DNA of 64,000 bases from Candidatus Omnitrophota bacterium (GTDB taxonomy: Bacteria > Omnitrophota > Omnitrophia > Omnitrophales > Aquincolibacteriaceae). The stretch is from positions 2,708 to 66,707 of the forward strand of contig JAKLIQ010000006.1 of assembly GCA_022709525.1 (NCBI GenBank), given 5' to 3'. The translations under genes and the position numbers were made by a program. Below are positions 2,967 through 36,060 of this stretch, in pieces; the stretch's first letter is position 1, and the number at the start of each line of letters is the position of its first letter. The notes below the pieces were generated by a model. The model ran no database searches and was not told the origin of the DNA. It was given only the letters and a program-made list of their open reading frames with translations.

Positions 2967-3221
2967 GGCGTTCCTCCGTTGGCAAGGATATATATAACGC
3001 AGAACCTGTTTAAAATCAACAAGTTATGCCTATTTTTTCATCCAGAAGCTCTATTTTCTTATATAGCAGAAAATAGCAATATTATCTAATAAACCGCTTC
3101 TGGGAAATATATTGAGCATGGGTTGTTAAATACTTTTTCAACCCCTTGAAATTTGAGAAACTTGTGTTACCTTTCCCATGAGTTTTCTCAATTCCAGGTT
3201 CCGAAAGGGCAAGATCAACGC
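2967..3221. promoter_or_regulatory. AT-rich divergent promoter region between the 703-aa paralogue (-) and giant gene 1 (+). Contains the GTGTTACCTTT motif (3164-3174) also found upstream of giant gene 2.
   Basis: About 35% GC against about 55% for the flanks. Small inverted repeat ctattttcttatatagcagaaaatag. Motif is shared with 36021-36031. Confidence 0.4.
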
Positions 3222-6200
3222 ATGGATTGTCTTAAGAATTTAAGGCGGTTTTTGGCGGGTATTGTCGCCTTCACATTCTTCGCGACGAACACTCTCACCC
3301 CAACTCCGAGCGCCTATGCGGCGAACGTAGAGTCTCCGTCCTTTGTTTCTTCTTTTAAGATCCCCGCAGAATTCGGCAAAGTCACCGATATTTTCTTAGG
3401 GACTCGGGACTCGTTCCTAGGGACTCGTAGCACAAAGAACTCAAACGAGTCCCGCGTATTAATTCATATCCAGGAAGCCCACGCCAATTATGACGCCCAG
3501 AAGAATATCCGGAATATCCTTGAGTATTTATCCCAAAATTACGGTATCAAGCTCGTCCTTTTAGAAGGCGCCGGGAACAAACTCCAGCCCGAACTTTTCA
3601 GGTTTTTCCCGCAGGACGCGGAACTTCAGCAGGCGGTGAATGACAAGCTGATGGAGATCGGCGAACTGAACGGCGCGGAAGTGTTTATGATTGAAAATAC
3701 GGGACTCGGGGCTCGACCCTTGGGACTCGATAAAACTAGGAACAAAAACGAGTCCCTAGTCCCTAGTGACGAGTCCCGCTCCGAAAGCGTTGCCGCTTTC
3801 GGTGTTGAGAATACAGCCGCCTATGTCAAAAATCTCGCTAGCTACCGGGAGGTTTTTGAAGGACGCAAGATCGCGGATGATTTTCTCGGAGCTTTCTATA
3901 CCCGATGGCAGAGATCGGCCGACCTTTCCATGAATAAATCCCTGCGCGAATTCCTGGGCCGCGAGACGGCATTCGAAGAGGATCGCGTTCCGCTCCAGGA
4001 TTGGCTGGAATCCTTGAAGAAAACGGCTTCCCGGGAGCTCGAACTGGACCTTGATAATGTTCGCGTGCAAAACGACTGGCCCGTGCTTGTCCGCTACTTT
4101 CGGCTGAAGCAGATCGCCCCGAAGATCAATGCGGCAAAAGCCCGGCAGGAAAAAGAAGTATTTTTACAGGACCTCAAAGCCCGCCGGATCCCTTCGGAAC
4201 TCCTTCAGGAGATCACAAAACTCCTCGAGCACAAAAAAGACGGGGACCTTCCTCCTTACAAAACCCGTTTTGCCTTCGAAAAACTCATGGATCTTCTGCC
4301 GACGGATTATTCGTTCGAACAATACCCCAATTTTAAGCTGCATCTCCAGCAGTTGATCCTTTTAAGCGAGCTCCAGAGCGATCAGCTTCAGGAAGAGATT
4401 GCGAAGCTCACCGAAAAACTCACAGTCCGTCTTACTCAAACTGAAAATGATAAACAACTCGTCGCGGTTTTGCATGATTACCGCCTTGTTAAAAAATTAT
4501 TTCAGCTCGAATTGAATCGTGGTGAATACCAGCAGCTTTTATCCCGCAATGTTTCACCCGCAAACATTATTAAGGGACTCGGGACTAGTTCCTCGGGACT
4601 CGGGAATCCAGGAAAAACGAGGAGCGAGTCCCGAATGACGAGGCTCGAGCTTCTCTACGGGACGGCAATCCGGTTTTACGAGGGAGCGATCGAGCGTGAG
4701 CATTGGATGATGCAAAAAGCGCTCGAGCGGATGCGGGAACGTAAACAGGCCAAGGCGGTCCTGATCACCGGCGGTTTTCACACCGACGGCTTTAGGGAAA
4801 AGATCCTCGCCGGCGGCAGTTCCTATATCGGGATCACCCCGCGCATCGGCGAGATCACCGCTGATTCTCAGAAGAATTATATTCAAACCTTGTTGGGTTT
4901 GAACGGGACTAGCGCCTCGCACCTCGGGACTCGTAAAAACGAGGAACAAAAACAAGTCCCGAGTCCCGAGTCCCGAGTCCCTGTCGCTGTAAGCGACATC
5001 GCTGCCACCCCTCGCTCTGACATCCGGCTCATGGCGGAAACGGGAGCGCTCGATCACTCCTTAAGCCGCATCGAGGCCGCCTCGATCGACATCGTTGCTT
5101 CTACTCGTCCCGAAAACCGCGAAACCTACCAAGCCCAATTAACCCAAGGCATTCAAACCATTAAAGACGAAGTTTTTAGTGGGCCAACTTCTACCGTACG
5201 CGCCGAAATGCGGAGAGCAATCAGGGTCGAGATTCCGGAACAGGTGAATAACGCCTTGAATTTGGAGCAATACCTTCGCAGTCTTTTGGGTAAAGCGGAG
5301 TACGGAACGCAAAATGTAACGCTCGAAGCGATCGCCGCGGGTGAATGGCGCATTGTCCTCGTTACCCAAAAAGGAGAAACGATCCCTACTTCCAATATGG
5401 CCCTCGCAAGTTCGATTCTTTCCGAGAAGGGCTATCATAACGGCATTCGCGATCTTCAAGCTATTGAATTCCATCCTCGCTCCGAAATGCGGGAGCGGAT
5501 CCTGCTTGTCGATGACAGCGAATCGGACCGCGCGCTCTTTCGGGTTATCCTGGAAAGCAAAAAGTATGAAGTGGTTGTTGTTGAAAGCGCCGAAGAAGCT
5601 CTCGAAGAGTACGCAAGAGCCAAAAAAGAAGGGAAGCCCTTCGCTGCCGTTGTTTCTGATTGGAATATGCCGAAAATGAAAGGCGACGAGCTGGCGCGCC
5701 GGATCACGGACGTGCCCTTTATCCTTCAAAGCTCGAACATCCTTGAGGACGGCACCGCGGAGAACCCCGCCGAACAGAAGATCCTGGATGAACTGGCCGC
5801 CTTAAACCCTTTTTTCAGGACCCATTCCAAAAACGAGCTGGGATTTTTGGCCGAGAAGCTGGCGGGACTCATTTTTGCCGCGAAACCCCCCGTTTTAAGC
5901 TTTTTGGAAATGCACAGCGCATTTACCGCGATCGCCAAAGAAGCCGCCGGCAACGATGATCTTGTCAAATTCATCAATGATAAATGGGAGCCCTTTTTGA
6001 CCACGGGCCCACTCACGAAAACAAAAGAGAAACCTTTAAAAACCGGGCAGGACTGGCAGCAATATTTCCTGAAATTGGGCCGCTTGAACCACGACCCCGA
6101 TATCGCCGCCGAAGCCTACAGACGCTTTCAGGCAATGGTGAAAAAAAATACAGGCAAGGAGTTGCCGCCCTTGCGCGAGGGGCCCCGCCAGCGTTCTGAA

Positions 6201-9200
6201 ATACGCACAACGGCAAAAAAAGCTGCTGATGCAAAACGAACCATCAAAAATATCGCGGATTATGTTCGGCCCGAACAAGGACAGAAAAAAGGGATCGGAA
6301 AGATCACGATACCTTATTACAAAGGCGGTGTCGAAATCAGCTATCGATTCGAACGTCTTAAAGAAAAAAAGAAAGAAATTATCGAAGTTTTCAAGAATTT
6401 GATAGCGGCTTTGGAACTCGAAGCTGAGGAGGAGCCGGAAATAGGCAGGCATTTTGAAGAGGGTATGAGCCATCAGGACCTCGTAGGCGTTTTCCGTTAT
6501 GACTTGGAGCAGAACCATATTTTTATGTTGCTTGCTTGGCTCAAAGCGTTGGGATTTCTGGACCTTTCCCCGACCCAGCAGGCGCTTTTGGAAAAAATGA
6601 AAGAAACTAAAAGCGCAGACAAGATCAAGCTCTACCCTAGAATCTTAAATATTGATTTAAAAGTTTTAAAACCCGAAGTTGAAAAATCGAGCGTCACAAG
6701 AGAAGCCGAAGAAGAGGATCTCGAGCCGGACGCAAACGACCTTGAAGGCGAAGACGCGGAAGCGCGCGCAGAAGTCAGGGCCTCTCAACCTGCCGGGAAA
6801 ACCGGTTTCGGCATCTTTTATCGTTTTAAACTTGCCCTGGCCATCGGGATCATCGGACTCTGGTCCGCGATCATGGCGCGGGCCCAGACCGTATTTCCCG
6901 GCAAACCTTACCTCGAGCATTACGCGGGGCTTTCCGGATCAGGGTCGATCGCGCAATATAGCAGCGCTCATTTCAAATGGAATTTCCGCATTTGGAACCC
7001 CGGCTACTCATTAGCCGTTTATAATTTTGGAACAACCGCTCAAGGCCCGCAAAATCTAAGCGGTTACACCAGTTTTAGTTGGGACGTCCGCTCCTACATT
7101 AACAACACCACAGGCCATCAGGGTGTTTTCCGGGTCGAATTCAAAGACACGGACGGCGATATCGCCAGCAAGACCGTTAGCGGCATTTATAGCAACTATC
7201 AGACCGTTACGATCACTTTGGCGGAACTTCTCGCCAGCAATCCTGCCTACAACCCTCAAAACACCAAAGAGATCGTTTGGGTCGCGGACAGCAATGCTTA
7301 TATGCCAGATGACTATGAAGGGTGGGCTGAATTTAAAACGGGCGGGCTTTTCTTCACCACGAATATTTCTCCCAACGCCTCTTATACCCTTTATGACACG
7401 ACCGAGCTTCCCGAAGGGACCGAAGGCGCGGTGGACCCTGTCACGGTCTATCCCGTCGGCGCGTCGGTGACAGCCAGCAATCAGGACCACGGGATCGCGT
7501 TCACTTATAACACGGGCGGCCAGACATGGGCCGGCGCCGGCATGGCGTTCGATGATTTCGGAACAGTACCTGTCGGCACAGGGGATTTGAGCGGTTTTTC
7601 GAACCTTGTTTTTGGCATTAAGGCCACCGGGACCACGCAGCTTAAGATGGAAATCGTGGATAGCGCCGAGAACAAGGAATATGTCTACTTAAACGGCATG
7701 AATGCCGGGTACCAGACATGGGTCATCCCGATGAGCTTTTTTGCCGGCATCGATCTTGAGAACGTCAAAGTCATTTATTTTATCGTCGAGGGCGCAGGCA
7801 AAAGCGGCACCGTCTCTATTAACCACATTCCCGAGACGATTGACATTACTGGCGTCAGACGTCAGCAAAATAATGATGTCGTCACTTTTTCAAGCATTTC
7901 AGGGCTTACCTATCGCGTGGATCAGAGCGCGGCCGGCCTTGTCAGTCCGAATTGGCAGACAGGCGCCACCACAAGAGCTCTCGGCCCCTCCGCGACGATC
8001 ACCAACAGCACCGGGTCTTCTTCTAATACCGTTGTGACACGGGTGATTTATAACCGTTCTGAGGCGAGGGAAGAAAAAACCCCGGCCTATAAGATCAAGT
8101 CGGAAGAAGTAAGCGTTTATGATCCGTCTAGTCCGAAAAGCGAGCCGTATGCCGTCGCCATGGACCTTGTTGAAGAGGTCCGGATATCCGAGACAAGAAC
8201 AGTTTATTTCAAAAAAGCCGCTTTTGAGGAGGCCTATGAAATTTATCTTAAGGGCGTGCCCAACGCTCTCGGCCTTTTGAAAGAAGGCGTCAGGACCCGA
8301 ATAGGCGATCTTCCGTTCCGTTTTATCGCCCGGGAAGGAAAACTGATCATCCTGGCGGAAAAACCCGGCATTGTTGTGATGAAGAAAATCCCGCAAACAG
8401 AAGCCGCGATAGCCAAGAAAACGCCCTTAGCCGCGAAAGCGCCGCTTCGGATCAAAAAATCCGAACTTACCAAGATCCAGGGAGAGGGAAGGAGCCGCTC
8501 CGAAGCGCGGCTTGATATCGAAAAGGAAATGTTCAAAAGTTTTTCGGAGCTTTCTTCCGACCTGCGGGTAAAGCTCAAGACCGAATGGAGCCGTTTCAGG
8601 CGTTTCGGCGGCAACTCACTTGAAAAAGCGCTGCGTGAAGACAATGAGGCGGGCGTTTTAACCCTCCTGGAATATTACTGGGAATTCGTCGGGGAGAAGA
8701 TCGTGCCTCCCGATGTCCTTTCCGGCAAGGTATCGATGGTGGCCCTGTCGCTGACCGGGGCTTGCGTTATGGGGCTCGTGGGTCTGACAGAAATACCGGT
8801 CCACGCCTTATTGATCAACCTTTCGATCTGGAGTTTTATCGCGGCAAGCGGTGTGTTCGCGGTTTCTTTGGCCGGAAGCCTTATTGGCAATCGGATGAAA
8901 CATAGCGAACTGGCCCGCGTCGATCACCTCATCAAATTAATGAGAGAGCTTATGGTCCGCCGGAACCATCTCCCCCTTTCGACTTTGGAGGAAAAAACGC
9001 TTTCGGGCGCATCTTCCGGCGCTCCCGTCGAAGCGGTTTACCGGCCGCCCCGAATGATCCAATTTTCGGAGCCGTTTGTGGAAGGCGAACGTCCCGGTAA
9101 AAGACCGCCTGAAGTGGAACCGCCTGCCCGTGCCGAACTAAGAGGTTTTGGATTCGATGTTCCGGATTGGGCCGTTGGAAGCGCTTCGAACTACCTCAAG

Positions 9201-12200
9201 CTTCAGGGTTTTGAGGAAACGGATCTTCGCGACGCAAAGGTTTTGGTCAAGAAAAGATCTGACGGAATGGTTTACAATGTCACGCTTCCTTCCGAATTTT
9301 CGCAGCCCTTTGACGCTTTAGACACGCTTCTTAAAGAGATCGAGATATTAGAAGTTTCCCAGATCAGCCACATCGAAGTTGAAAGCCGCGCGTACATCCT
9401 GAAACACTTACTTGCCATAGCCCGGGGGTATGACCAGGAAGCCGCCCAAAAGGCCGGTGCGTTGCTCCGAAGACTCAATAAGCCCCATTCAGCCGCCGCC
9501 GCGATGGAAGAAGCCAAAAAACTTATTTCATCGTCTCGATCCGAAGCAAGAGCCGCCGGAACCGAAGAGAATCCCGCTTTTGAAAAGATCAGAAAGGCCG
9601 TCGTGGAGCTTGCTTTCGAATTGGCCCAAAAGCCGTGGTACAAGGTCCCCAAGGCCGGAGAAGATTTTGACGCGATGGTCAGGATCTTGTCGGAGCACAA
9701 CCAGAAAAGGATCCTCGGGATCGTCGCCTCAAGGATCGAACAATTCGCCGGCGAGATCAGAAGGTCCATGAAAGACGGTTCCACCTGGAAAATGCTCCGA
9801 AGCCGCTATGAGACGGCGCTTGACGCGTCGCGGAAGGTTTCCGGGGCCCCGTCCTCTCTTGAGGAACTTATCACGGAAATGCCTTTTGTTTTTGTGGACC
9901 GTATCGTCCAATTCGGGAAGGCACAAAGGCCTCTCGAAGAAAGATTGGCGCAGGCCGTAGAAGCGCTTGCTGAGATCCAGCGGGGTTCTTACGGATTGGA
10001 GAACGCAAAGACGGCGCATGAGCTCGAAACCAGACTCAGCCGCCGCGGCAGCGAGAGATTTATGGATGTCCTGGAAAGCGCGGAAGATTTCTCTCGCGCC
10101 GTCTTATCCCAGCGCTCCGAAGTCCGCGACAACACCAATACCATTGACGGCTATACGGTCGTCAGCCGCCAACTTGAAGCCGGCCTTGACCGCAGCATTC
10201 TTGAAGCTCTTAACAAAAAACTAAGCCGCCGGTTCCCTAATCTGGGGCATATGATCCGTCGTTATGTGGGGCTTGTCGCCGAAACAACGCTGACGGGCGG
10301 GTTGGGCGCGTTGATGCATGACCTTTTTCCGGCATGGGGGAAGAATTTTGGCTCCCAGGAAAAACGCGAAAAGGACCTTGTGGCGATCAATGTTGTTTAT
10401 GAAAGCATCAAAGGGCAGCGGTATGCGAAGTATTTGCCGGCGGAGATCCAGGAGGGAAGAAAAACGCTCGGGGATTACCTGCGCGGCGTTCTCAAATCCG
10501 ATAAAAGTCTCAGTCTTTCTTTTGAGCTCGAAATAGGGGACGATTTTAGAAGGAAGGCCGCCGACGAAGAGCGTTTTGCCGCCTCGTATGGCAGCGCCGA
10601 ATACCGTGTTTTCGCCCATAAAGCCAAACAGATCATCGGACAAAAGATCTATGTGGAGGTCTATCCGACCGAAACGCATTTTGGCCGTGTTCCCAACTAC
10701 TATGTGGACGCCTATTTTATTGACAACGAAGGCGAAAAAATCAGCATTTTTGACGAGGTCTATCCCGACGCGCCGCATGGGCACCCTAATTTGTGGCGCG
10801 ATGTCCATATGGCCGTTTACAGTTTGGCAAGCCAGCATCTCCTGGAAAAGCTTCGCAGGAAAGGCGTTGTTAAGAGCAAATTCCTTTTTGTGGATAACGA
10901 AGTTTTTGTCAGCACGCCCACGCCCCTTTTCCCCGACGCGATCCATCATCACGTCAACCACACGGTTTTCCGTCCCGGGCTTTACATGCCGGATGAAGCT
11001 TCCTATGAAATGCTCGGATTCCCGGAGGTGCAGCGCAAATACATCGTCAAGGACGGGAAGATCAACATCATTGATGCCGTCGGGATCTCTTCCCATCTGA
11101 TCACCGGGGTCGCCTTGTATGAACACACACCGGTCCTGGCCAAAGACATCATGGCGGCCCATGTCCATAAACTCGAAAGTTACAACAAAGAAGGCGTCCG
11201 CAACACCAACGGGGTTTATCTCGAACAGTGGCAATCGCCCCTTTTGACGGATCTGATCAGCCAGTACAAAGCAAAGATCGGCTTGGAGCCGGAGGATTCC
11301 AACCAGGCGTTCTATCGAGAGATCCAGAAAACCACCCACGCGAGGATCCTGGAAGAATTCGAAGAGAAAGCGGAATTCATCAAGGCGGTCCATGCGGCCG
11401 AACTCCTGCTTTGGCTTAAGGAAGACCAGAATTATTCTCTTTGGTTCGATGAGATGCTCGAAGCGTTTCAGGGCCAGCGCGGCGTTGCGGGCGGGGAATG
11501 GCATCTTGATATCGCTGACGCGGGGAAATTCGTCGAAGGGTTCCGGCAAGCCGTTCAAGATGCCGTCATAGACCCGGCGGGGTGGCAGCACTTCAAGGCG
11601 GGCCCCATGTTCTTCCTGAAAGAACTCCTCTTGCGGGAGCCCATCATTTCCAATGTCCGTCGACAGGTTTCTTATAAAGGGCCGGATAAATGGCTTGAGA
11701 TCTTAAGAAAACTGCAGCGCGATCCTCACGCCTTGGCTCAGTTCAAAGAAAATGCTCCCCGCGTTATTCTGGGCGGACGCGAATTTGGCGAAGAGGCGCA
11801 CGGCATGTTTTTAGAGATCCAAGGCCTCATCAGAGCCCTTGGGTTGCAAGACCGTTTCGCGACCGTCGACGACTACAATAACTACATTGCCCCGATCATT
11901 TTCCAGGGCGTTTCCGGCTCCGTGATGCTTTCCGACGAATTCCTGGAAGCTTCCGCGACCAGCATGATGAAGGCGATTGCGAACGGGGCGGCTCTGATCG
12001 GGGTTTGGGGCGGAGCGGATCCCGAGATCTTCACGATCGTTGATCATAAAACAAAACGCGAGCTGGATGTTTTTAAAGACCATGTCACCCATGACGAACT
12101 CGTTAAAAATCTAAGAACCGGCGCATGGAAGATCACGAACGGTTTTCTGATCGAATATAGCTCTCAAGAGAACAGCACGCAGCCGGGAGGGGGAAGGCGT

Positions 12201-15200
12201 CCGTCCGCCGATTCGCTTCTTCGCGCTCTTTTAGACCTGAACGAGCAATACCAGGATCCGGAAGCGAGGCGCCGGCTTCAATTCAATACGCTCGCATCTT
12301 CTTTAAAGGTCGATATGGCCGAAGGGCAAGCGCTGGCCCACAAAATGTTGTGGGAAGAGGCGATCAGGATCCTTCAGGAAGAGGACAAGGTTTTTGAAGG
12401 GCTGAAGATCTCCCAAGAGGACTCGGAGGCCCTTCTTTCCCGCTCGATCCGCGGCCAAGGTATTGTGGATTTTATCGAGGAATTCCGTTATCTGCGCATG
12501 AAGGGCCGTGAAAGTTACGACCGGGTCGCTTTTTACGCGACACAGGGGCTTCAAGGGAGCATTTTTGGTTTTCTCAATGAATTTTTTAAAGATTTTGACC
12601 ACACGCTCGAACCTGTCATCCGCAAGATCCATGAACTTTCCGTTCGCGCCGAAACCACGACCAACCTTCAGGAGAAAGTCATCGCCAATCTGGAAGCTCT
12701 GGAGATCGTGGAGCGGCTCACGGTGGAAGTTTCCGTCGCTCTTTTTGAGCATTATGTGCTTTCCGGGGATAAGGCGCTCGAACCGTATCTTGCCAAGCCG
12801 ATCATTCGCGAGAATCTGGCCCGCTATTTCGATGAACACGCAGTCGCGCTTGAATCGATCGCTAAAAAGATCCCGGGTTATACCGTTTCAATAGGCGATA
12901 AAAATTACCTCGTGGCACTAAATCTCGGCGAATTCAGTTACGTTGGCCCTTCGGGAGAAAAAGCGCGGGGCGATTTTTACGGCGAAGAAGGCATTAAGGC
13001 CCTTATTGGGGAAGAAGCGGCCAAAAACGATGCGAGCATTTTCCAGCTTGTGGATGCGATCACAGATCAGCGTTACGGCACTTATCCCGTCTGGAAGATG
13101 ATGGAAAGATTTCCGATCGGCGTGCCTTATCCCGGGGTTCAAGTTCTTCGCGTCGAAGATACAGGCCAGCAGTCGGAAGAAAAAGAAACAAGGCTTCGCA
13201 ACGACATTCTGCATTATCTCGAAGCCCTGGCCAACAATCGCCTGGTGAGCGATGGAAAACCGATCACTCAGTTGCTGCTCCAGAAGATCCAGACGGTTGT
13301 GGAGGATCCGGCCAAGCTTTCCAAAATGCTCAAGGTCGTGGCTAACCTCTCTCGCGAAGAGGCCATTGTCAAGTTTACCCGGGGCGGCGTTCCCGCAGTC
13401 ATGGCTTTTATCGCTATTTTGTCGCCGGAACTGCTTGAAGATGTCAAACATTGGAATCCCGATGTTTATAAAAAACTAAATGCGGTGATCCAAGATCCCG
13501 CGTTTGAAAAGAACTTCAAAGAAGGGAAGATCTGGTTCCATAAGGTGGACCGCGACAGCGCCCTTGTCATTTCAAGGAACCTGCCCGGACAGGATATCCC
13601 GCCCGTGATCGTCCCGATCCATTTCCCGGACAGGCCTTACCGCGCCGATGACGGAAAAGCCTGGTTCAGGTTGCTTGATGTGCGGAATTTAGGCGTTGAG
13701 AACTCTGACAAGATCGAATATCAAGTTTATGACGCCATCCTTCAAAAGGCTTATGAGCCGAAAACCGGCGCCAAGCTTCATAGCGAAAAATGGCATTTAG
13801 GCGTTCCCGTTGAGGGCGCGGGGTACCGGTTTCAAATCCTACAGGTCCAACTCGTCAGCGCCGCCCGTTCGGAAACCCGCGGAGTAAGCAATGAAGAAAC
13901 CGAGGAATGGACAAAACATATCAATGACTGGATTAAGCATACCCCTGAAAAAGTACTTATTTTGGGGCTGGGGTTTGTGGGTCTTACAAAGCTTGTACTC
14001 GGAGTGACGGATCATGGATGGGATGCTGTCGGCCTGGAAATCGTTCCCTCCAAAGCGAACATGATCTCGCAAGGCGGAATGCCTTTTTTTGCGGACATGA
14101 TGGAGCCGGAGTATGATAAGGAAGGGAAAATGAAAGATCCAGGCCTGCTTCAAACCGCCATCGAAAGCGGAAGATTTCATGTTACCTCAAGCTACGACGA
14201 AGCTCTGAAAGACCCCGAGAGAGACATTATTTTTCTCGCCGTTCAAACCCCTCAAAGCAACGATGGACGGGCGGATACATTTTATCTTGAATACGCCGTG
14301 CGAGAAGTCGCGCGAAGGACTTTCAGTTATCCCAGAATCATTGTAGGGAAAAGTACGGCACCTCCCAAAACTACCGTGGAAAAACTCAGAATCTCTGTAG
14401 AGGAAGCTCGCGCAGAGAGAATGCAGGAAGTTTTCATCAAACAGCTTCATGACGCATCAATGCAGACAGAAAGATCCGGGGACGAGGCAATCTTCAAATT
14501 AGTACAAGGCTTTCTTTCGGAACAGCTTATAAAACAAAAAATGGTTTTAGATTCCGAAAAATCTTACCTGGAAGCAGTAAGCCGGGAAGACTGGGCGGGC
14601 GACGTCAGACGAACAGAAAAAAAATTAAGAACAATTCATAGGGATAATCCTGAAAATATTAAGACGACCCTTGATTTACTTCGCGAGACAATCGGAGAGG
14701 GGAAATTTAATTCTCTTTTCAACAGCAAGGAAATTTTAGACCAAACAATCCCCATTGAATTTGCTTGGGAACCGGAATTTTTACGTGAAGGAAAAGAGGT
14801 CGTCGACGATCGTGGAGAAGCCGGGCGCATAGTGATCGGAGCCGAAAACCTTAAGGCGGCGCAAAAGGTCAAAGCCCTCTACGAACATTATAACCCCAAT
14901 CTGAATCCCCCTCGTCAGCAAGTTCCTATTGTTATCACAGATCTTGCAAGCGCTCAAACCGTCAAGTATGCCGCTAATACTTACCGCGCGATAAAAATAT
15001 CTTTCATTAATTATATCGGCTGGCTTTGTCAGGTGATGGGTTACGATGTGAATAAGATAGCAGATATTATAGGAATAGAAGGCAATGTTCGAAGGGCGTT
15101 TTTAAATGCAAGTCTTGGTTTTGGCGGATCGTGTTTTCCTAAAGATTTGGCGGCTTTTGTTAAATTATGTAGGGAGCTTGGCCTTTTACCCAATTTGGTA

Positions 15201-18200
15201 TTAGACGCTCTTGCGGTCAATGAAGTTCAGATAAGGAGGTTCGTGAATTTAATTGTCAAACAATTAGACGGCGTCAAAGATAAAACCATTGTTGTGCTTG
15301 GCGGTGCTTTTAAACCCGAAACGAGCGATACGCGAGATTCCAGAGCCGTTCGCGTCATGCAGGATCTGTTGCAAAAAGGAGCCAAGATCAGGGTTGTAGA
15401 TCCTAAAGCTATACCGGAGCTTCAAAGAATGTTTAAGGCGTATCCCCCCGGAGTCATTGAATACTTCGAGAATTTAGATGATTTTGAAAACGTCTTTAAA
15501 GAAGCAGACGGCATTGTACTCGCTACAGAGTGGGAAATATTTAGAGATAAAAGAATAGATCCTAAAAATGGAAAAATGGATTTTGAAAAAATAGCGGCAC
15601 TTTTTACTCATAGACAGTCACTTCCTCATATTTTTGACGGCCGAAACTTATTTGAAAGAAAAGCAGTTAAAGAATTTGGCTTTTCGTATATTGATATTGG
15701 ACGCGCCGAATTACTTAAATCAGACAAAGAACATGTCGCATTTGCAAAACAAGTCAAAGAAGTTTTTCTGGCAGGGAGAGTTTCTCATATCAATGATGTC
15801 GCAGAACTTGCAGAGAAAACCGGAGCCAACGCCTTGGATATCCGAAAAGGATTTGGGTTAGATCCCGTCGTCGGAGAGAGCTATTTAGATCCCGGCATTG
15901 GTTGGGGCGGTCATGACCTTGTGAATTCGCTCCGAGCTCTTGAGAAGCAATCTTGGGATAATATTAAAGATTTGTTGGATGAATATCGCGAAGCCAGGAA
16001 AGATTTTATGAAGCAGTTTGGTTTTAGCGAAAATGAGTTTCCTGATGACGAAAACAGAGTTCCTTTCGTAACAGCTAGCCGCGAAATCAACAAAAAGCAG
16101 ATCGGACTTTATTTAAATAAGGTCAAAACTATTTTAGGCCCTGATCTTAACGGAAAGGACATAACGCTCATCGGTTTGGCCTATAAGATCGGCACTTATT
16201 CTCTCGAAGAATCGCCTTCTATTCATCTCATCGAGGCTCTTTTGCAAGAAGGGGCGATCGTTCATATTGCGGATGAAAATCTTGCTGCTACCGCCAATAC
16301 GAAGGATTATTTTAGCAGATTTCAACACGGAAAATTCGTAGAAAATATTCGCCTTTATAACAATCTTTCCGACGCAATTGTCAATGGGAAGGATTTGCAA
16401 GTTTTAGTGAATCTTTCAGAACGCTACTCTGAAGAATCAGAATGGGCAAAACTCGGATTAAAGAAAGTTTTAGACGCCAGACATTTTTTTAATGATCCGG
16501 TTTCTCTTAAAAAGACGGGTATCAGTTATTTTGCTTTAGGGATACCCGAGGTGAGTTTAGCTGAGGAAGAAGTGTTGAGGCAAAGGGAAATGGAAAGTCG
16601 CGCTGTTCTGAGCCAAATGCAAAAAGCGATTGTCTTTTATAAAGACAAAGTTATGATCGAAGAAAGGGAAGATGAAACATATAAAGTTACCGCATTTGTA
16701 AAAATAGAGGATTCCTGGCTACAAAGAGCCGATTTTTATATTTTTTATGGACCTTATCCCCATGAGCGTCAAACTTTTGATTGGTATGCCCAAGAAGTTT
16801 TGGGCGGGAACATTCGAAAGATAGAACAAACACCCGATTTTTATCAGATCAAACTTATTATCTCACCTAAGAACAATTTTCCAGCTGTTGAGGGGAGGTA
16901 CGGCCTTACCCTTTTTGCCGTTCCTAAAACCATGGCAGAAACGGATCCGGGTTTTCGAAAAGTTCGGTTATGGGCCGCTAAGCCTTTTGACGACACTCCC
17001 TTTATCGTACGTCGTACCGAGCGTTCGGAGCTGCGCAGTCCCGTGGAGGATTTCAGGGCGGAGATCGAAGCGGGCAAAGTCACATTCATCATGTTCAAAG
17101 AAGACGCAGTGAGGGGCCGGAACGAAGAGGGATTGATGGTTCCTCAAATGCTCGAGCGGCTTAGAGACCACGGGTTTGAATTGGTGTATCTTGGCGCTCA
17201 GACCGAATTTACTCAGGAACAGGCCCGGGAGTTTTACGCGGTGCATCAGGGCAAGTGGTTTTATGAACCGTTGGTCCAATACATTACTTCAGGGCCCGCT
17301 ATCCCCGCGTTGGTACGGTATCATGGAGAAGGCCCGGCGGTTCAGGCGATCCGCAGCATTCTGCCGTCGTTGCGCCAGGAGTTCGGGATCGAGAAGGGGG
17401 ATCCGGAGCTCAAAAAAGTTGAACGCAACAAGATCCACGCTTCCGATTCACCCGAGAACGTGTTCTATGAAGGCGCGATCGCTTTCCGCTCCGAGCTCCG
17501 GACGCTGGATGTCGAGGCGCTCGTTGCAACGATCGCCGAACCGGTCTCCGCGATCGATCTTTTCAAGAAAATAGGGCAAAATTCCGCCTTAAGGCAGATC
17601 CGCGCTCTGAAAGAACAAATCATCAAGGCATCTTCCGAGTTCAATCAATCCAAACGCCAGGCCGAAGAAGTCCAGGAGATCGGCGATCTGGGGCTCAAGA
17701 TCGCAAAGCTTCTTTCCCAGGAAAATTATTCTCCCGAAAAGACCCAAGGGATCCTTCAAAAGGCGGTTTCAGAACTTTCTGAGGCGTTGGGGCTTATTCT
17801 TAGATTGCTGACTTACGCGGCAACGGCTAACACCAAAAGTATCCAGCCGTCGGTTTCCGTTGAAGCTCAAAAAATGGTCAAGAAGATCGAAGCGGCGATG
17901 GAGCGGCCTGCGCGCGAAAAGAAAGCTACGGAAACGGCGTCTCCCCGTTCCGAACTGCGGAACGTCGCGGCGCTGATCGCGACAGGAGTTGAGGTCAGGA
18001 CGCCCGAGGAATTCTTCCGGCGCAATCTCGAACAGGGCGGCGGCCATGAACAGGGCGTCCGGAGCGTTACGGAAAAGGTCATGGATGGGATCTATTCGCT
18101 TCTGGCTCATAGCTTTGATGCCGCAAAAGTCATTTCCTCCGCTTTCTTTCCGGAAGCTTATGCTCAAGAGATGTTAACCATGGCTTCCAAGCCCGAAATG

Positions 18201-18698
18201 TTCCTCACAAAGATGCGGTTTGCCGCCGCCAAGGCCGCGCTCGGCATTAAAACATTCAGCGCCGGCGATGTGCTTGTGATCGGGAGGGGATTTGCCCTCG
18301 AGCAGGGCGCGATCGCCGCAGTGCGGACGGTCTTTGGCGATATACCCGTTTTAATTTACACAGATCAAGCGGAGGACGTCGGCTTCCTCGAACAACTCAA
18401 TGTCCAGCTTGCCCAAGCCCATCGGCCGCCAGTCCTGGTGGCTCGGAATCCGGATGAAGCGAGAAAACTCCTGGACGAGGAAGCCGCACGGCTCCGCCAA
18501 GCAGGCGTTAGTTCGATCCATTTTAAGGCCATGGTCTACGAAGCGGAGACCCTGCCTGAAGCTCTCCGGAAGCAGCTTTCCGATGTGACGGTCGTGACAT
18601 CCCGCATGTTCAAGCATTTCCTCAATCTTGCCGGCTCCCGCATTGCCGCGCTGGCGCAGGAAGTCCAGGTCAAGTTCGCCTTCGCGCGGTCGGCATAA
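3222..18698 (+). CDS. Giant multidomain protein 1 (about 5,160 aa; the ORF is open from TTG 3153). Order: N-terminal signal/anchor, TraB/Tiki-like domain, REC, TM, CBM-like beta-rich region, 2 TM, GT35 alpha-glucan phosphorylase, UDP-glucose 6-dehydrogenase, nucleoside-diphosphate kinase, shared C-terminal domain.
   Basis: Single uninterrupted 15.5-kb ORF. The first ATG (MDCLKNLRRFLAGIVAFTFFATN...) is followed by a hydrophobic segment. Domain motifs are listed in the separate features. Confidence 0.85.
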   Translation: MDCLKNLRRFLAGIVAFTFFATNTLTPTPSAYAANVESPSFVSSFKIPAEFGKVTDIFLGTRDSFLGTRSTKNSNESRVLIHIQEAHANYDAQKNIRNILEYLSQNYGIKLVLLEGAGNKLQPELFRFFPQDAELQQAVNDKLMEIGELNGAEVFMIENTGLGARPLGLDKTRNKNESLVPSDESRSESVAAFGVENTAAYVKNLASYREVFEGRKIADDFLGAFYTRWQRSADLSMNKSLREFLGRETAFEEDRVPLQDWLESLKKTASRELELDLDNVRVQNDWPVLVRYFRLKQIAPKINAAKARQEKEVFLQDLKARRIPSELLQEITKLLEHKKDGDLPPYKTRFAFEKLMDLLPTDYSFEQYPNFKLHLQQLILLSELQSDQLQEEIAKLTEKLTVRLTQTENDKQLVAVLHDYRLVKKLFQLELNRGEYQQLLSRNVSPANIIKGLGTSSSGLGNPGKTRSESRMTRLELLYGTAIRFYEGAIEREHWMMQKALERMRERKQAKAVLITGGFHTDGFREKILAGGSSYIGITPRIGEITADSQKNYIQTLLGLNGTSASHLGTRKNEEQKQVPSPESRVPVAVSDIAATPRSDIRLMAETGALDHSLSRIEAASIDIVASTRPENRETYQAQLTQGIQTIKDEVFSGPTSTVRAEMRRAIRVEIPEQVNNALNLEQYLRSLLGKAEYGTQNVTLEAIAAGEWRIVLVTQKGETIPTSNMALASSILSEKGYHNGIRDLQAIEFHPRSEMRERILLVDDSESDRALFRVILESKKYEVVVVESAEEALEEYARAKKEGKPFAAVVSDWNMPKMKGDELARRITDVPFILQSSNILEDGTAENPAEQKILDELAALNPFFRTHSKNELGFLAEKLAGLIFAAKPPVLSFLEMHSAFTAIAKEAAGNDDLVKFINDKWEPFLTTGPLTKTKEKPLKTGQDWQQYFLKLGRLNHDPDIAAEAYRRFQAMVKKNTGKELPPLREGPRQRSEIRTTAKKAADAKRTIKNIADYVRPEQGQKKGIGKITIPYYKGGVEISYRFERLKEKKKEIIEVFKNLIAALELEAEEEPEIGRHFEEGMSHQDLVGVFRYDLEQNHIFMLLAWLKALGFLDLSPTQQALLEKMKETKSADKIKLYPRILNIDLKVLKPEVEKSSVTREAEEEDLEPDANDLEGEDAEARAEVRASQPAGKTGFGIFYRFKLALAIGIIGLWSAIMARAQTVFPGKPYLEHYAGLSGSGSIAQYSSAHFKWNFRIWNPGYSLAVYNFGTTAQGPQNLSGYTSFSWDVRSYINNTTGHQGVFRVEFKDTDGDIASKTVSGIYSNYQTVTITLAELLASNPAYNPQNTKEIVWVADSNAYMPDDYEGWAEFKTGGLFFTTNISPNASYTLYDTTELPEGTEGAVDPVTVYPVGASVTASNQDHGIAFTYNTGGQTWAGAGMAFDDFGTVPVGTGDLSGFSNLVFGIKATGTTQLKMEIVDSAENKEYVYLNGMNAGYQTWVIPMSFFAGIDLENVKVIYFIVEGAGKSGTVSINHIPETIDITGVRRQQNNDVVTFSSISGLTYRVDQSAAGLVSPNWQTGATTRALGPSATITNSTGSSSNTVVTRVIYNRSEAREEKTPAYKIKSEEVSVYDPSSPKSEPYAVAMDLVEEVRISETRTVYFKKAAFEEAYEIYLKGVPNALGLLKEGVRTRIGDLPFRFIAREGKLIILAEKPGIVVMKKIPQTEAAIAKKTPLAAKAPLRIKKSELTKIQGEGRSRSEARLDIEKEMFKSFSELSSDLRVKLKTEWSRFRRFGGNSLEKALREDNEAGVLTLLEYYWEFVGEKIVPPDVLSGKVSMVALSLTGACVMGLVGLTEIPVHALLINLSIWSFIAASGVFAVSLAGSLIGNRMKHSELARVDHLIKLMRELMVRRNHLPLSTLEEKTLSGASSGAPVEAVYRPPRMIQFSEPFVEGERPGKRPPEVEPPARAELRGFGFDVPDWAVGSASNYLKLQGFEETDLRDAKVLVKKRSDGMVYNVTLPSEFSQPFDALDTLLKEIEILEVSQISHIEVESRAYILKHLLAIARGYDQEAAQKAGALLRRLNKPHSAAAAMEEAKKLISSSRSEARAAGTEENPAFEKIRKAVVELAFELAQKPWYKVPKAGEDFDAMVRILSEHNQKRILGIVASRIEQFAGEIRRSMKDGSTWKMLRSRYETALDASRKVSGAPSSLEELITEMPFVFVDRIVQFGKAQRPLEERLAQAVEALAEIQRGSYGLENAKTAHELETRLSRRGSERFMDVLESAEDFSRAVLSQRSEVRDNTNTIDGYTVVSRQLEAGLDRSILEALNKKLSRRFPNLGHMIRRYVGLVAETTLTGGLGALMHDLFPAWGKNFGSQEKREKDLVAINVVYESIKGQRYAKYLPAEIQEGRKTLGDYLRGVLKSDKSLSLSFELEIGDDFRRKAADEERFAASYGSAEYRVFAHKAKQIIGQKIYVEVYPTETHFGRVPNYYVDAYFIDNEGEKISIFDEVYPDAPHGHPNLWRDVHMAVYSLASQHLLEKLRRKGVVKSKFLFVDNEVFVSTPTPLFPDAIHHHVNHTVFRPGLYMPDEASYEMLGFPEVQRKYIVKDGKINIIDAVGISSHLITGVALYEHTPVLAKDIMAAHVHKLESYNKEGVRNTNGVYLEQWQSPLLTDLISQYKAKIGLEPEDSNQAFYREIQKTTHARILEEFEEKAEFIKAVHAAELLLWLKEDQNYSLWFDEMLEAFQGQRGVAGGEWHLDIADAGKFVEGFRQAVQDAVIDPAGWQHFKAGPMFFLKELLLREPIISNVRRQVSYKGPDKWLEILRKLQRDPHALAQFKENAPRVILGGREFGEEAHGMFLEIQGLIRALGLQDRFATVDDYNNYIAPIIFQGVSGSVMLSDEFLEASATSMMKAIANGAALIGVWGGADPEIFTIVDHKTKRELDVFKDHVTHDELVKNLRTGAWKITNGFLIEYSSQENSTQPGGGRRPSADSLLRALLDLNEQYQDPEARRRLQFNTLASSLKVDMAEGQALAHKMLWEEAIRILQEEDKVFEGLKISQEDSEALLSRSIRGQGIVDFIEEFRYLRMKGRESYDRVAFYATQGLQGSIFGFLNEFFKDFDHTLEPVIRKIHELSVRAETTTNLQEKVIANLEALEIVERLTVEVSVALFEHYVLSGDKALEPYLAKPIIRENLARYFDEHAVALESIAKKIPGYTVSIGDKNYLVALNLGEFSYVGPSGEKARGDFYGEEGIKALIGEEAAKNDASIFQLVDAITDQRYGTYPVWKMMERFPIGVPYPGVQVLRVEDTGQQSEEKETRLRNDILHYLEALANNRLVSDGKPITQLLLQKIQTVVEDPAKLSKMLKVVANLSREEAIVKFTRGGVPAVMAFIAILSPELLEDVKHWNPDVYKKLNAVIQDPAFEKNFKEGKIWFHKVDRDSALVISRNLPGQDIPPVIVPIHFPDRPYRADDGKAWFRLLDVRNLGVENSDKIEYQVYDAILQKAYEPKTGAKLHSEKWHLGVPVEGAGYRFQILQVQLVSAARSETRGVSNEETEEWTKHINDWIKHTPEKVLILGLGFVGLTKLVLGVTDHGWDAVGLEIVPSKANMISQGGMPFFADMMEPEYDKEGKMKDPGLLQTAIESGRFHVTSSYDEALKDPERDIIFLAVQTPQSNDGRADTFYLEYAVREVARRTFSYPRIIVGKSTAPPKTTVEKLRISVEEARAERMQEVFIKQLHDASMQTERSGDEAIFKLVQGFLSEQLIKQKMVLDSEKSYLEAVSREDWAGDVRRTEKKLRTIHRDNPENIKTTLDLLRETIGEGKFNSLFNSKEILDQTIPIEFAWEPEFLREGKEVVDDRGEAGRIVIGAENLKAAQKVKALYEHYNPNLNPPRQQVPIVITDLASAQTVKYAANTYRAIKISFINYIGWLCQVMGYDVNKIADIIGIEGNVRRAFLNASLGFGGSCFPKDLAAFVKLCRELGLLPNLVLDALAVNEVQIRRFVNLIVKQLDGVKDKTIVVLGGAFKPETSDTRDSRAVRVMQDLLQKGAKIRVVDPKAIPELQRMFKAYPPGVIEYFENLDDFENVFKEADGIVLATEWEIFRDKRIDPKNGKMDFEKIAALFTHRQSLPHIFDGRNLFERKAVKEFGFSYIDIGRAELLKSDKEHVAFAKQVKEVFLAGRVSHINDVAELAEKTGANALDIRKGFGLDPVVGESYLDPGIGWGGHDLVNSLRALEKQSWDNIKDLLDEYREARKDFMKQFGFSENEFPDDENRVPFVTASREINKKQIGLYLNKVKTILGPDLNGKDITLIGLAYKIGTYSLEESPSIHLIEALLQEGAIVHIADENLAATANTKDYFSRFQHGKFVENIRLYNNLSDAIVNGKDLQVLVNLSERYSEESEWAKLGLKKVLDARHFFNDPVSLKKTGISYFALGIPEVSLAEEEVLRQREMESRAVLSQMQKAIVFYKDKVMIEEREDETYKVTAFVKIEDSWLQRADFYIFYGPYPHERQTFDWYAQEVLGGNIRKIEQTPDFYQIKLIISPKNNFPAVEGRYGLTLFAVPKTMAETDPGFRKVRLWAAKPFDDTPFIVRRTERSELRSPVEDFRAEIEAGKVTFIMFKEDAVRGRNEEGLMVPQMLERLRDHGFELVYLGAQTEFTQEQAREFYAVHQGKWFYEPLVQYITSGPAIPALVRYHGEGPAVQAIRSILPSLRQEFGIEKGDPELKKVERNKIHASDSPENVFYEGAIAFRSELRTLDVEALVATIAEPVSAIDLFKKIGQNSALRQIRALKEQIIKASSEFNQSKRQAEEVQEIGDLGLKIAKLLSQENYSPEKTQGILQKAVSELSEALGLILRLLTYAATANTKSIQPSVSVEAQKMVKKIEAAMERPAREKKATETASPRSELRNVAALIATGVEVRTPEEFFRRNLEQGGGHEQGVRSVTEKVMDGIYSLLAHSFDAAKVISSAFFPEAYAQEMLTMASKPEMFLTKMRFAAAKAALGIKTFSAGDVLVIGRGFALEQGAIAAVRTVFGDIPVLIYTDQAEDVGFLEQLNVQLAQAHRPPVLVARNPDEARKLLDEEAARLRQAGVSSIHFKAMVYEAETLPEALRKQLSDVTVVTSRMFKHFLNLAGSRIAALAQEVQVKFAFARSA
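3396..3458. repeat. In-frame GGGACTCG element inside giant 1, encoding ...LGTRDSFLGTRSTKNSNESR.
   Basis: ttagggactcgggactcgttcctagggactcgtagcacaaagaactcaaacgagtcccgcg. Confidence 0.8.
3700..3780. repeat. In-frame GGGACTCG element inside giant 1 (centre in inverted orientation), encoding GLGARPLGLDKTRNKNESLVPSDESR.
   Basis: gggactcggggctcgacccttgggactcgataaaactaggaacaaaaacgagtccctagtccctagtgacgagtcccgc. Confidence 0.8.
4574..4637. repeat. In-frame GGGACTCG element inside giant 1, encoding GLGTSSSGLGNPGKTRSESRMTR.
   Basis: gggactcgggactagttcctcgggactcgggaatccaggaaaaacgaggagcgagtcccgaatgacg. Confidence 0.8.
4905..4982. repeat. In-frame GGGACTCG element inside giant 1 with 4 tandem CGAGTCCC octamers, encoding ...HLGTRKNEEQKQVPSPESRVP.
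   Basis: gggactagcgcctcgcacctcgggactcgtaaaaacgaggaacaaaaacaagtcccgagtcccgagtcccgagtccc. Confidence 0.8.
5494..5860 (+). other. Response-regulator receiver (REC, CheY-like) domain in giant 1.
   Basis: RILLVDDSESDRALFRVILESKKYEVVVVESAEEALEEY...PFAAVVSDWNMPKMKGDELARRI. This fits the DD ... D-x-x-MP-x-M-x-G pattern of REC domains. An RSEMR motif lies immediately upstream. Confidence 0.7.
6803..8050 (+). other. TM helix (6803-6877) followed by a Thr/Gly/Asn/Tyr-rich beta-sandwich-like extracytoplasmic region, possibly a carbohydrate-binding module.
   Basis: FGIFYRFKLALAIGIIGLWSAIMA, then QTWAGAGMAFDDFG...FSNLVFGIKATGTTQLKMEIVD...VKVIYFIVEGAGKSGTVSINHI. Confidence 0.35.
10150..12120 (+). other. 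Glycosyltransferase family 35 alpha-glucan (glycogen/maltodextrin) phosphorylase domain in giant 1.
   Basis: TLTGGLGALMHD (compare GNGGLGRLAAC) at 10292-10327. SDEFLEASATSMMKAIANGAALIGVWGGADPEI (11930-12030) matches the PLP-lysine signature EASGTSNMKFxLNGALTIGTxDGANVE. Confidence 0.7.
13950..16330 (+). other. UDP-glucose/GDP-mannose 6-dehydrogenase family domain in giant 1 (NAD-binding, central and UDP-binding parts, plus a duplicated C-terminal UDP-binding domain). The region is lower in GC than the rest of the gene.
   Basis: KVLILGLGFVGL (GxGxxG), IVGKSTAPPKTT (compare STVPPGTT), GFGGSCFPKDL catalytic Cys at 15118-15150, KTIVVLGGAFKPETSDTRDS. Second copy DITLIGLAYKIGTYSLEESPS. Confidence 0.8.
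17077..17490 (+). other. Nucleoside-diphosphate kinase (NDK) domain in giant 1, bracketed by RSELR motifs.
   Basis: KVTFIMFKEDAV (compare TFIMIKPD), YITSGPAIPALVRYHGEG (compare YMxSGPVVAMVWEG), RNKIHASDSPENV (compare RNIIHGSDSVESA; catalytic His present). Confidence 0.7.
18000..18695 (+). other. C-terminal domain of unknown function shared by both giant proteins.
   Basis: ...SSIHFKAMVYEA...TSRMFKHFLNLAGSRIAALAQEVQVKFAFARSA* in giant 1 against ...RSVHFKAMAGAN...TERTFENFLNIAGVSALVNAMTVQYKATAKSA* in giant 2. Confidence 0.6.
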
Positions 18699-28053: not shown

Positions 28054-28803
28054 ATGATCGACGTTCAATCGCTTACAATGCATTACGGTTCCGTGACCGC
28101 TCTGGAAAATGTTTCATTCCGGGCGAATGCGGGTGAGATCCTCGGCCTTCTCGGGCCGAATGGGGCGGGGAAGACCACCGCCATGAGGATCCTTACAACT
28201 TACCTTTATCCTTCTTCGGGGACCGCCAAGGTTGACGGATTCGATATTTTGGAAGCCCCCATCGAAGTGCGGAGACGCATCGGTTACCTGCCGGAAACCG
28301 TACCGCTTTATACGGATATGCGGGTTGACGAGTATCTGACTTTTGTGGGGAAAGCGCGTTCGCTTGAAGGCGCGAAACTCGCCGAACGGCTTGAAAAGGT
28401 CCGGGAAGCGTGCCGCCTCAAGCCCGTATGGAAACATCTTCTGGGAGAGCTTTCCAAAGGGTTCGGCCAGCGCGTGGGTCTTGCGCAGGCGCTTATTCAC
28501 GACCCCAAAGTTTTGATCCTTGATGAACCCACTTCCGGTCTTGATCCGATCCAGATCATCGAGATCCGGGCGCTTGTCAAAAGTCTCGCCAAAGAAAAAA
28601 CCATTATTTTTTCCACGCATATCCTTCAAGAGGTGGAGGCGCTTGCCGACCGGATCGTGATCATCAACGAAGGGAAACTTGTCGCCCAAGGGACCCGGCG
28701 CGAATTAGCTGAAAAAGTTCCCGATCCCGGGAAATCCCCGCAGGACCTTACTCTCGAAGAGATCTTTATCGGGCTTCTTAAGCCGCAAAAAGCAGTCTCA
28801 TGA
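28054..28803 (+). CDS. ABC transporter ATP-binding protein (GldA-like).
   Basis: Walker A GLLGPNGAGKTT, signature LSKGFGQRVGLAQAL, Walker B LILDEPTSGLD. Confidence 0.85.
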   Translation: MIDVQSLTMHYGSVTALENVSFRANAGEILGLLGPNGAGKTTAMRILTTYLYPSSGTAKVDGFDILEAPIEVRRRIGYLPETVPLYTDMRVDEYLTFVGKARSLEGAKLAERLEKVREACRLKPVWKHLLGELSKGFGQRVGLAQALIHDPKVLILDEPTSGLDPIQIIEIRALVKSLAKEKTIIFSTHILQEVEALADRIVIINEGKLVAQGTRRELAEKVPDPGKSPQDLTLEEIFIGLLKPQKAVS

Positions 28804-31310: not shown

Positions 31311-31349
31311 GCCCTCTTGCAAAAAACCGGGTCTTTATAAAGTGTTCTT

Positions 31350-35802: not shown

Positions 35803-36060
35803 AAAAAACCTCCTTTTTCTTAGCGGTTAGCCAGGCTTTTTGGCCACCGCACTAAGGTTAAAAACAAGGCCGTTATTATATCACGCCGGACCATGCCGTA
35901 AAGTTCCAAAATCCTCACAAAATCGACCCTAAAGACTAGAATTTGATGCTATAAAAAGTTATAAATTGAGCGTCTATTTTTTAAATACATTTATAAGAAA
36001 GTTGCTAAGCAGGATATCAGGTGTTACCTTTTAGGAACATTCAACCTGTTGTCCTGTCTG
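35803..36060. promoter_or_regulatory. AT-rich promoter region of giant gene 2. Contains GTGTTACCTTT (36021-36031), shared with the giant gene 1 upstream region.
   Basis: About 35% GC. caggtgttaccttttaggaacattc here against cttgtgttacctttcccatgag at 3162-3183. Confidence 0.4.

Follow-up and report, generated by a model that had tools for sequence, protein, structure and literature searches.

Introduction

The bacterial MARTX toxins are 3.5-5.3 kaa (thousand amino acids) in length, and their modules are freed by inter-module cleavage. They are exported by the type I secretion system (T1SS), for which they have a C-terminal signal, and they lack an N-terminal signal peptide and contain glycine-rich repeats; an internal C80 cysteine protease cleaves them after Leu. 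The gingipain/HagA polyproteins use a C-terminal domain of the type IX secretion system (T9SS). By analogy, these two groups seem to be the nearest functional counterparts of the two giant proteins described here, g1 and g2, although the giant family is a member of neither. Both are encoded in a 64,000-nucleotide stretch (hereafter the window; positions 2,708 to 66,707 of contig JAKLIQ010000006.1, assembly GCA_022709525.1) from a Candidatus Omnitrophota bacterium, and our main subject is the C-terminal domain (CTD) that they have in common.

Like the MARTX toxins, the present proteins are giant, with conserved N- and C-terminal regions and variable, independently folding enzyme modules between them; they differ in their signal peptide and N-terminal domain (NTD), their α/β CTD, a border motif of the form R-[SAP]-E-x-[RK], and housekeeping-type cargo. 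With gingipain/HagA they would share an N-terminal Sec signal, the processing of a multi-domain polyprotein after Arg/Lys, and a C-terminal domain that is conserved and serves in sorting. They also resemble viral polyproteins in the short, strict motif at the domain borders of one long product, with unconserved flanks and lineage-specific variants. However, the giants are encoded on a cellular chromosome among housekeeping genes, their product is apparently exported, and no viral-type protease is recognizable in them. Autotransporters and two-partner secretion (TPS) passengers are likewise very long and Cys-poor, with a Sec signal and a terminal handling domain that is conserved, but the giants possess neither a C-terminal β-barrel nor a TPS β-helix or a TpsB neighbor.

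Giants of the same phylum, representing the same phenomenon, have been reported as Omnitrophota 'multi-enzyme metabolic clusters', i.e. very long open reading frames (ORFs) with signal peptide or transmembrane (TM) content and many metabolic and regulatory Pfam domains, and their cleavage into smaller products has been proposed (bioRxiv 10.1101/2023.11.21.568195; 10.64898/2026.06.07.730766). According to the former preprint, no cleavage points are known for these proteins (10.1101/2023.11.21.568195). Term searches of both preprints turned up neither a cleavage site nor a punctuation motif, and likewise neither a conserved terminal chassis nor cysteine depletion (10.1101/2023.11.21.568195; 10.64898/2026.06.07.730766). 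The question is whether the record-size Omnitrophota proteins work as undivided chains or are processed into numerous products. Starting from the CTD, our analysis led to a defined chassis, which is composed of a signal peptide and NTD, the CTD, and a strict border motif that varies between proteins and metagenome-assembled genomes (MAGs). We tentatively interpret the CTD, with a probability of about 0.4, as a constant, non-catalytic module at the end of an exported and probably proteolytically processed polyprotein, serving in its handling or recognition.

A conserved domain at the C-terminus of the giants

A BLASTP comparison of the last 400 aa of g1 and g2 gives a single significant match, between aa 5014-5181 of g1 (window 18192-18695) and aa 6762-6930 of g2, with 35% identity over 181 columns (E 3e-21); the same block is retained at E 3.5e-18 when the whole proteins are compared. 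This similarity is far beyond chance. It agrees with a preliminary description of this DNA, which had regarded the last roughly 180 aa of both giants as homologous on the basis of strings that are indeed present ('SIHFKAMVYEAE...MFKHFLNLAG...VQVKFAFARSA*' in g1 and 'SVHFKAMAGAN...TFENFLNIAG...VQYKATAKSA*' in g2). The terminal domain is real, but its start had been placed at position 18000, which lies inside a linker specific to g1; the core begins at 18168 (Table 1). The boundary at the last ~176 aa was set by the AlphaFold model and by a 539-nt block of another MAG described below. The pentapeptide RSELR had correctly been noted ahead of each domain (window 17946-17960 and 56284-56298), and it is separated from the CTD core by 69 aa in g1 and by only 4 aa in g2. 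Between the last motif and the CTD, g1 and its g1-type relatives keep a sub-element with the pattern 'GGG..G.R.VTEK..DGI.SL.AH.F', which is absent from g2 and from the giant of locus L005.

A word-indexed homology search with both CTDs returned only one syntenic fragment, and an exhaustive HMMER search of 1.84 billion proteins was required to recover the family. The CTD profile matched 78 cluster representatives, 52 of them at E<1e-10. In essentially all 78 representatives the matched CTD ends at the last residue of the protein, with no significant internal copies. Many of the CTD-bearing proteins have 2,000-7,248 aa, and the family as a whole extends from 1.2 to at least 11.7 kaa. The named relatives are mostly Candidatus Omnitrophota, to which the CTD family belongs according to database names and a genome scan; the latter, carried out with a 10-sequence CTD alignment, gave four loci, and one other MAG likewise holds two CTD loci. 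The earlier claim of a constant terminal domain on cargo-variable giants is therefore borne out by a domain that is strictly terminal and has no conserved catalytic residues.

In MAG binchicken_co117_27, two otherwise unrelated giants (L004:10001-10550 and L005:2022-2565) have a 539-nt block in common that is 99.8% identical. The block corresponds exactly to the last ~176 codons plus ~10 nt, with unrelated flanks, a pattern that indicates a putative gene conversion or cassette exchange of the CTD. Because the block covers exactly the CTD, the domain appears to be a discrete unit that is exchanged between giants.

Apparent stand-alone CTD or NTD proteins were also considered. The short matches that we checked turned out to be contig-edge fragments, mis-called genes or a gene disrupted by an insertion sequence (IS), and were set aside. 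At L010:1-6615, the public annotation splits a continuous ORF of >2204 aa into a 204-aa gene and numerous small genes on the opposite strand. At L006:10001-13212, the gene ends after the NTD, directly before a DDE-transposase gene, consistent with an IS insertion.

Fold and free end of the CTD

The AlphaFold2 (AF2) model of the CTD, built from 54 sequences, has a predicted local distance difference test score (pLDDT) of 92 and a predicted template modeling score (pTM) of 0.84. In the model, a long helix at the N-terminus leads into a five-strand α/β core, which is followed by two C-terminal helices; in total, the three-layer α/β structure has 5 short strands and 8 helices. Foldseek searches of PDB and BFVD with this model gave no match at E<1e-3 and no TM-score above 0.44; the best, non-significant matches are generic Rossmann, flavodoxin or SIS-like folds. 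The known cytoplasmic enzyme fold that the preliminary description had held to be damaging to its proposal was thus not encountered as a specific match. PDB sequence-profile searches with the CTD, the NTD and a stand-alone NTD paralog (see below) returned only noise, the CTD profiles bringing up nothing except de novo designed Rossmann folds. Pfam contains nothing above threshold for the last 400 aa of g1 and g2, and NCBIfam has no consistent match for ten CTDs. As far as can be judged from the model and these searches, the CTD is a new domain without a specific structural or sequence relative.

Among the 54 sequences, conservation exceeds 90% only at A25, L137 and A180, and the conserved positions mostly belong to the hydrophobic core. 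Neither a conserved Cys/His/Ser set nor a Gly-rich loop is seen in this alignment. Since a conserved set of catalytic residues is lacking, the CTD is unlikely to be an enzyme.

It could also be supposed that the CTD is simply constant cargo, i.e. a small ligand-binding (Rossmann- or SIS-like) sensor or effector that is present in every giant and has a role unrelated to trafficking. A well-folded 176-aa α/β domain that follows a punctuation motif in the same way as the other modules would suit this role. SIS-domain proteins (GKRP 3w0l; viral GlmS) and Rossmann enzymes are found among the best non-significant fold matches, and sugar-nucleotide metabolism is common among the cargo. We nevertheless consider this improbable, because the fold matches remain below significance, neither a Gly-rich nor a Ser/Thr phosphate-binding loop is conserved, and the constant last place and the [RK]-S-A end of the domain would be left unexplained.

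The free end is the most striking conserved feature of the CTD. The last residue is Ala in 77 of the 78 representatives, and the consensus is A-[RK]-S-A; 65 sequences end in SA and 12 in AA, with RSA in 34 and KSA in 17. In the AlphaFold model, the last helix is packed on the domain together with the tail at pLDDT ~95.

Comparison with known secretion and sorting signals

The preliminary description had compared the CTD with known tag classes, and a divergent T9SS CTD, T1SS signal, autotransporter translocator or sortase/exosortase signal would be the most conventional explanation. The architectural analogy and the low Cys content typical of such substrates speak for it, and nothing else does. 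Our data make this explanation highly improbable, as the likeness does not extend to any sequence model, to the predicted fold or to the neighboring genes.

The T9SS CTD is a β-sandwich of ~80 aa with its own Pfam/TIGRFAM models and dedicated T9SS machinery, whereas the present domain is a 176-aa α/β unit. T9SS CTD models (Por_Secre_tail / TIGR04183-type) were not matched in Pfam by g1 and g2 or consistently in NCBIfam by the ten CTDs, and the ~70-100-aa β-sandwich is not seen in the α/β model. T1SS substrates have no N-terminal signal peptide and a cognate ABC/MFP/TolC set nearby; the giants have a conserved signal-peptide-like N-terminus, and the only ABC genes of the window (28054-32405) encode an ABC-2 / ABC_transp_aux / DUF4340 system, which is GldA/F/G-like and not T1SS. 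RTX-repeat or other secretion-tag families are not listed in the Pfam scans of either giant, nor is a C80 peptidase of the MARTX kind, and the absence of glycine-rich T1SS repeats had been stated correctly beforehand. The same is true of the missing hydrophobic anchor, since a hydropathy scan of the last 250 aa detected no TM segment in either giant. A C-terminal autotransporter (type V secretion) β-barrel of 12 or more strands is likewise not seen in the predicted fold. Instead of a sortase, exosortase or rhombosortase signal, in which a motif precedes a TM helix and a basic tail, the giants end in an amphipathic helix followed by ARSA or AKSA. CdiA/Rhs polymorphic toxins, which have a constant trafficking region at the N-terminus and a variable toxin tip at the C-terminus, also differ in layout, as the C-terminus of the giants is constant and their variation is internal.

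An adjacent dedicated secretion system, which the preliminary description had suggested looking for, is not recognizable beside the giants within the window. The obvious export determinants of the giants are located at the N-terminus and not in the CTD.

A punctuation motif at module borders

The RSELR in front of the CTD, which had been taken as an accompaniment of the domain, is not CTD-specific but is one copy of a recurring motif, a feature overlooked in the preliminary description. RSE.R occurs 11 times in g1 (plus one RSDIR) against 0.11 expected (Poisson p 5e-19), and 18 times in g2 against 0.18 expected (p 4e-30). Across 31 giants there are 272 copies, compared with 0-13 for permuted patterns, and in most giants tested the motif ranks first among the pentapeptides counted de novo. 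Its flanks are unconserved.

The copies mark the borders of modules. NDK of g1 (aa 4644-4780) is bracketed by motifs at aa 4624 and 4779, and HPr of g2 (aa 3235-3304) by motifs at aa 3223 and 3360; the Response_reg and UDP-glucose dehydrogenase (UDPGDH) modules of g1 and the DEAD-box helicase of g2 are flanked as well. All 50 motifs compared with Pfam domains lie outside them (p ~1e-3). A recurrent short motif at domain borders, as is expected of a processed polyprotein, is thus present.

The motif differs between proteins and MAGs, with variants RSE, RAE.R (P0024) and RPE.[RK] (both giants of one MAG), so that its general form is R-[SAP]-E-x-[RK]. Phosphorylation of the Ser was ruled out as its function because RAE and RPE variants with Ala or Pro at position 2 exist in some giants, making the Ser dispensable. 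The combination of Pro at position 2 with K or R at position 5 points to recognition through a basic P1 residue, which would place the cut after position 5. For the giant proteins of Omnitrophota, the motif is a candidate code for cleavage or docking; a literature search for RSELR or RSExR found nothing relevant. We also considered whether the C-terminal tail mimics the motif (RSA vs RSE), and dropped the idea because tail and motif variants do not co-vary.

Since the codons of the motif vary, selection seems to act on it as protein. Some codon bias is nevertheless present at the 30 sites in g1 and g2. CGY encodes the first Arg in 26 of 30 (background 43%, p 9e-7) and TCN the Ser in 28 of 30 (background 66%, p 6e-4), while the other synonymous positions vary. 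Shared ancestry of the linkers might account for this bias, as might a role of the DNA itself in the shuffling of modules.

Cargo enzymes and cysteine depletion

The variable modules are cytoplasmic-type enzymes, including UDP-glucose dehydrogenase, NDK, HPr and helicase, and much of the cargo belongs to sugar-nucleotide metabolism. These enzymes keep their catalytic residues, and the NDK, HPr and receiver motifs are intact. Cys amounts to 0.083% of the giants vs 0.95% of the neighboring genes, an about tenfold depletion. Of the six Cys of g1, two are upstream of the chosen start, one is in a TM-like segment, and three are in the UDPGDH module, where one of them corresponds to the conserved GGxCxxKD motif. 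Intact motifs combined with Cys depletion would fit active enzymes carried in an exported chain. Intact housekeeping-type enzymes in a Cys-depleted, apparently exported protein bear on how ultra-small, possibly predatory bacteria handle other cells.

The N-terminal region and its stand-alone paralog

The start of g1 at 3222 was selected by alignment to family N-termini of the type 'MNCLKxLRRF...', within an open frame that runs from 3153 to 18698 (5181 aa). The corresponding open frame of g2 is 36049..56841 (6930 aa), and the database protein P0003 is identical to g2. The N-terminus of g1 agrees with a family-wide pattern, 'K.LRRFLAG.VA.TFF.TNTL.P.P.A.A', from which we infer cleavage of a signal peptide and export of g1. 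Together with the low Cys content, the N-terminal signal peptide gives the giants the appearance of exported proteins. Internal hydrophobic hairpins and one single TM-like segment were also observed, at aa 1860-1901 of g1 (window ~8730-8855) and at aa 1127-1167 and ~3143 of g2; stretches of the chain may be membrane-embedded.

The signal peptide is followed by a domain of ~600 aa common to both giants, which had escaped the preliminary description (g1 aa 32-629 vs g2 aa 36-622, 29% identity, E 4e-57). This NTD was found in 22 of 32 CTD-bearing proteins of at least 1000 aa, g1 included, and several of the others are evidently truncated at the N-terminus. Every CTD protein with an intact N-terminus, down to the smallest of 1164 aa, has the NTD. 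A signal peptide, a conserved NTD, variable enzyme modules and the CTD make up the design of these giants, which form an apparently Omnitrophota-specific class.

Invariant residues of the NTD are H82, H87, E115, E153, E196, R291, R492 and GGFH517-520, a constellation that suggests an active site. The AF2 model of the NTD has pLDDT 75. PF04187 gives sub-threshold matches only, to 3 of the 15 NTDs searched (best E 0.0079) and to 1 of the 52 stand-alone paralogs, and the sole α/β PDB matches in the upper part of the fold-search list are 3b55 and 2rad (B. cereus BcR135; E 0.8-2.9), which we take to be erythromycin-esterase-like. A relationship of the NTD to the TIKI / ChaN / EreA superfamily is only a weak lead.

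A stand-alone paralog of the NTD is encoded head-to-head with g1 (Table 1); it has a signal peptide, contains no Cys, ends in ...EKAA, and is 100% identical to an NCBI protein from a Candidatus Omnitrophota MAG. Its family consists of 113 clusters, all source-named clusters except one being Candidatus Omnitrophota, and is Cys-poor. In all 104 full-length paralogs the last residue is A or V, preceded by [KR/T/Q]-[AS], and the usual endings are KAA, KSV and KSA; the [KR]-[SA]-[AV] tail of the protein beside g1 is of the same kind as the CTD tail. The punctuation motif is sporadic in the stand-alone family, without a single conserved site. Divergent pairing of paralog and giant recurs in two distant genomes (L007 and L008), whose partner giants of 11,695 and 6,228 aa agree with g1 and g2 in signal peptide, NTD, motif and Cys depletion. 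We also examined whether the C-terminal 250 aa of the paralog are a CTD, and they are not detectable as such (probability 1.4%). The order of a Polyketide_cyc2 gene (346-804, + strand), the paralog and the giant is kept in L007 and L008.

These data open another explanation, in which the CTD would bind the NTD of its own chain as an intramolecular partner. Docking of the CTD or its tail on the His/Glu site of the NTD would regulate or complete that enzyme, e.g. by keeping a processing activity switched off until synthesis or delivery of the chain is complete. The strict co-occurrence of NTD and CTD, even in the minimal 1164-aa member, and the constellation of invariant residues argue for it, as does the paralog, whose own C-terminal domain ends in a tail of this kind. 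The last 19 columns of the CTD and paralog families even align end-to-end (hhalign E 0.0065), although the match is weak (probability 5.8%) and the remainder of the paralog C-domain has no detectable kinship with the CTD. The CTD is, moreover, swapped between giants independently of the NTD. We consider such a partnership unlikely, while still giving it more weight than constant cargo.

Proposed role of the CTD

If the CTD is a terminal handling or recognition module, the following sequence of events can be envisaged. The giants would be exported through Sec and cut after the basic fifth residue of the punctuation motif, either by an NTD-type enzyme or by an unlinked Arg/Lys-specific protease. 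The CTD would thereby be released as a piece of ~180-250 aa. Its terminal helix and free tail would be recognized by a partner, possibly a receptor or an NTD-type protein, in the course of sorting or docking or to control processing. In that case, the CTD acts like a C-terminal sorting domain, outside every known tag family.

Several points weigh against such a module. Cleavage, export and binding are all deduced from sequence, and neither a receptor nor a protease was found, nor a secretion system within the window. The fold class of the CTD is typical of cytoplasmic proteins. Given the packing of the tail in the AlphaFold model, its conservation could be structural instead of a signal. The CTDs of g1 and g2 are merely 35% identical, so that one common receptor would need wide tolerance, and giants using RAE or RPE have no matching tails. 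Finally, the few internal hydrophobic hairpins leave the topology of some parts of the giants unsettled.

A farther-reaching proposal, which we regard as possible but rather doubtful, is that the giants are true cellular polyproteins. After Sec-dependent export, they would be cut after R-[SAP]-E-x-[RK] by an NTD-type enzyme, i.e. their own NTD or the head-to-head paralog, freeing programmable active enzymes of cytoplasmic type, presumably inside a host or prey cell; the [RK]-S-A tail of the CTD would be read by the same machinery. If true, a concrete cleavage code would be available for Omnitrophota giant proteins for the first time, together with a new bacterial design for effector delivery. 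The chassis itself offers a rule for splitting the giants into modules for structure prediction, and it flags a conserved partner gene.

Features of the window

The coordinates of the giants, their terminal regions and their motifs are compiled in Table 1.

Table 1. Positions of the giant proteins and associated features in the window.
Feature	Position	Strand	Remarks
Stand-alone NTD paralog, 703 aa	855..2966	-	NTD profile E 1.8e-37
Giant 1 (g1)	3222..18698	+	5158 aa counted from ATG at 3222; ORF list
g1 signal-peptide-like N-terminus, MDCLKNLRRFLAGIVAFTFFATNTLTPTPSAYA/A	3222..3320	+	sequence read directly; slash, putative cut
NTD of g1, up to RSDIR motif	3321..5027	+	
12 motifs R-S-E/D-x-R in g1	4620..17960	+	first bases 4620, 5013 (RSDIR), 5478, 6192, 8055, 8496, 9537, 10113, 13866, 17022, 17487, 17946
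g1-type pre-CTD linker/sub-element, '...GGGHEQGVRSVTEKVMDGIYSLLAHSF...'	17961..18167	+	kept in g1-type relatives P0001, L004 giant, P0019
CTD core of g1, 176 aa	18168..18695	+	homology; AF2 model; boundary from gene-conversion block (putative)
C-terminal tail A-R-S-A-COOH of g1	18684..18695	+	tail statistics, 78 representatives
Giant 2 (g2)	36115..56841	+	6908 aa counted from ATG at 36115
g2 signal peptide and NTD, up to first motif RSEAR	36115..38073	+	
18 motifs R-S-E-x-R in g2	38059..56298	+	first bases 38059, 39235, 40096, 40591, 41242, 42931, 45181, 45715, 46126, 46738, 47998, 49522, 50146, 51358, 53377, 54577, 55606, 56284
CTD core of g2, 176 aa, end ...ATAKSA	56311..56838	+	homology

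The genes surrounding g1 and g2 are ordinary chromosomal ones, comprising a MqnA-like gene, transketolase, GGT, ThyA, DHFR, SodA and the transporter of the ABC-2/GldG type. The operon of this transporter (28054-32405) is located between the two giants, and encodes an ATPase, a permease fused to ABC_transp_aux/DUF7088, and a DUF4340 protein.

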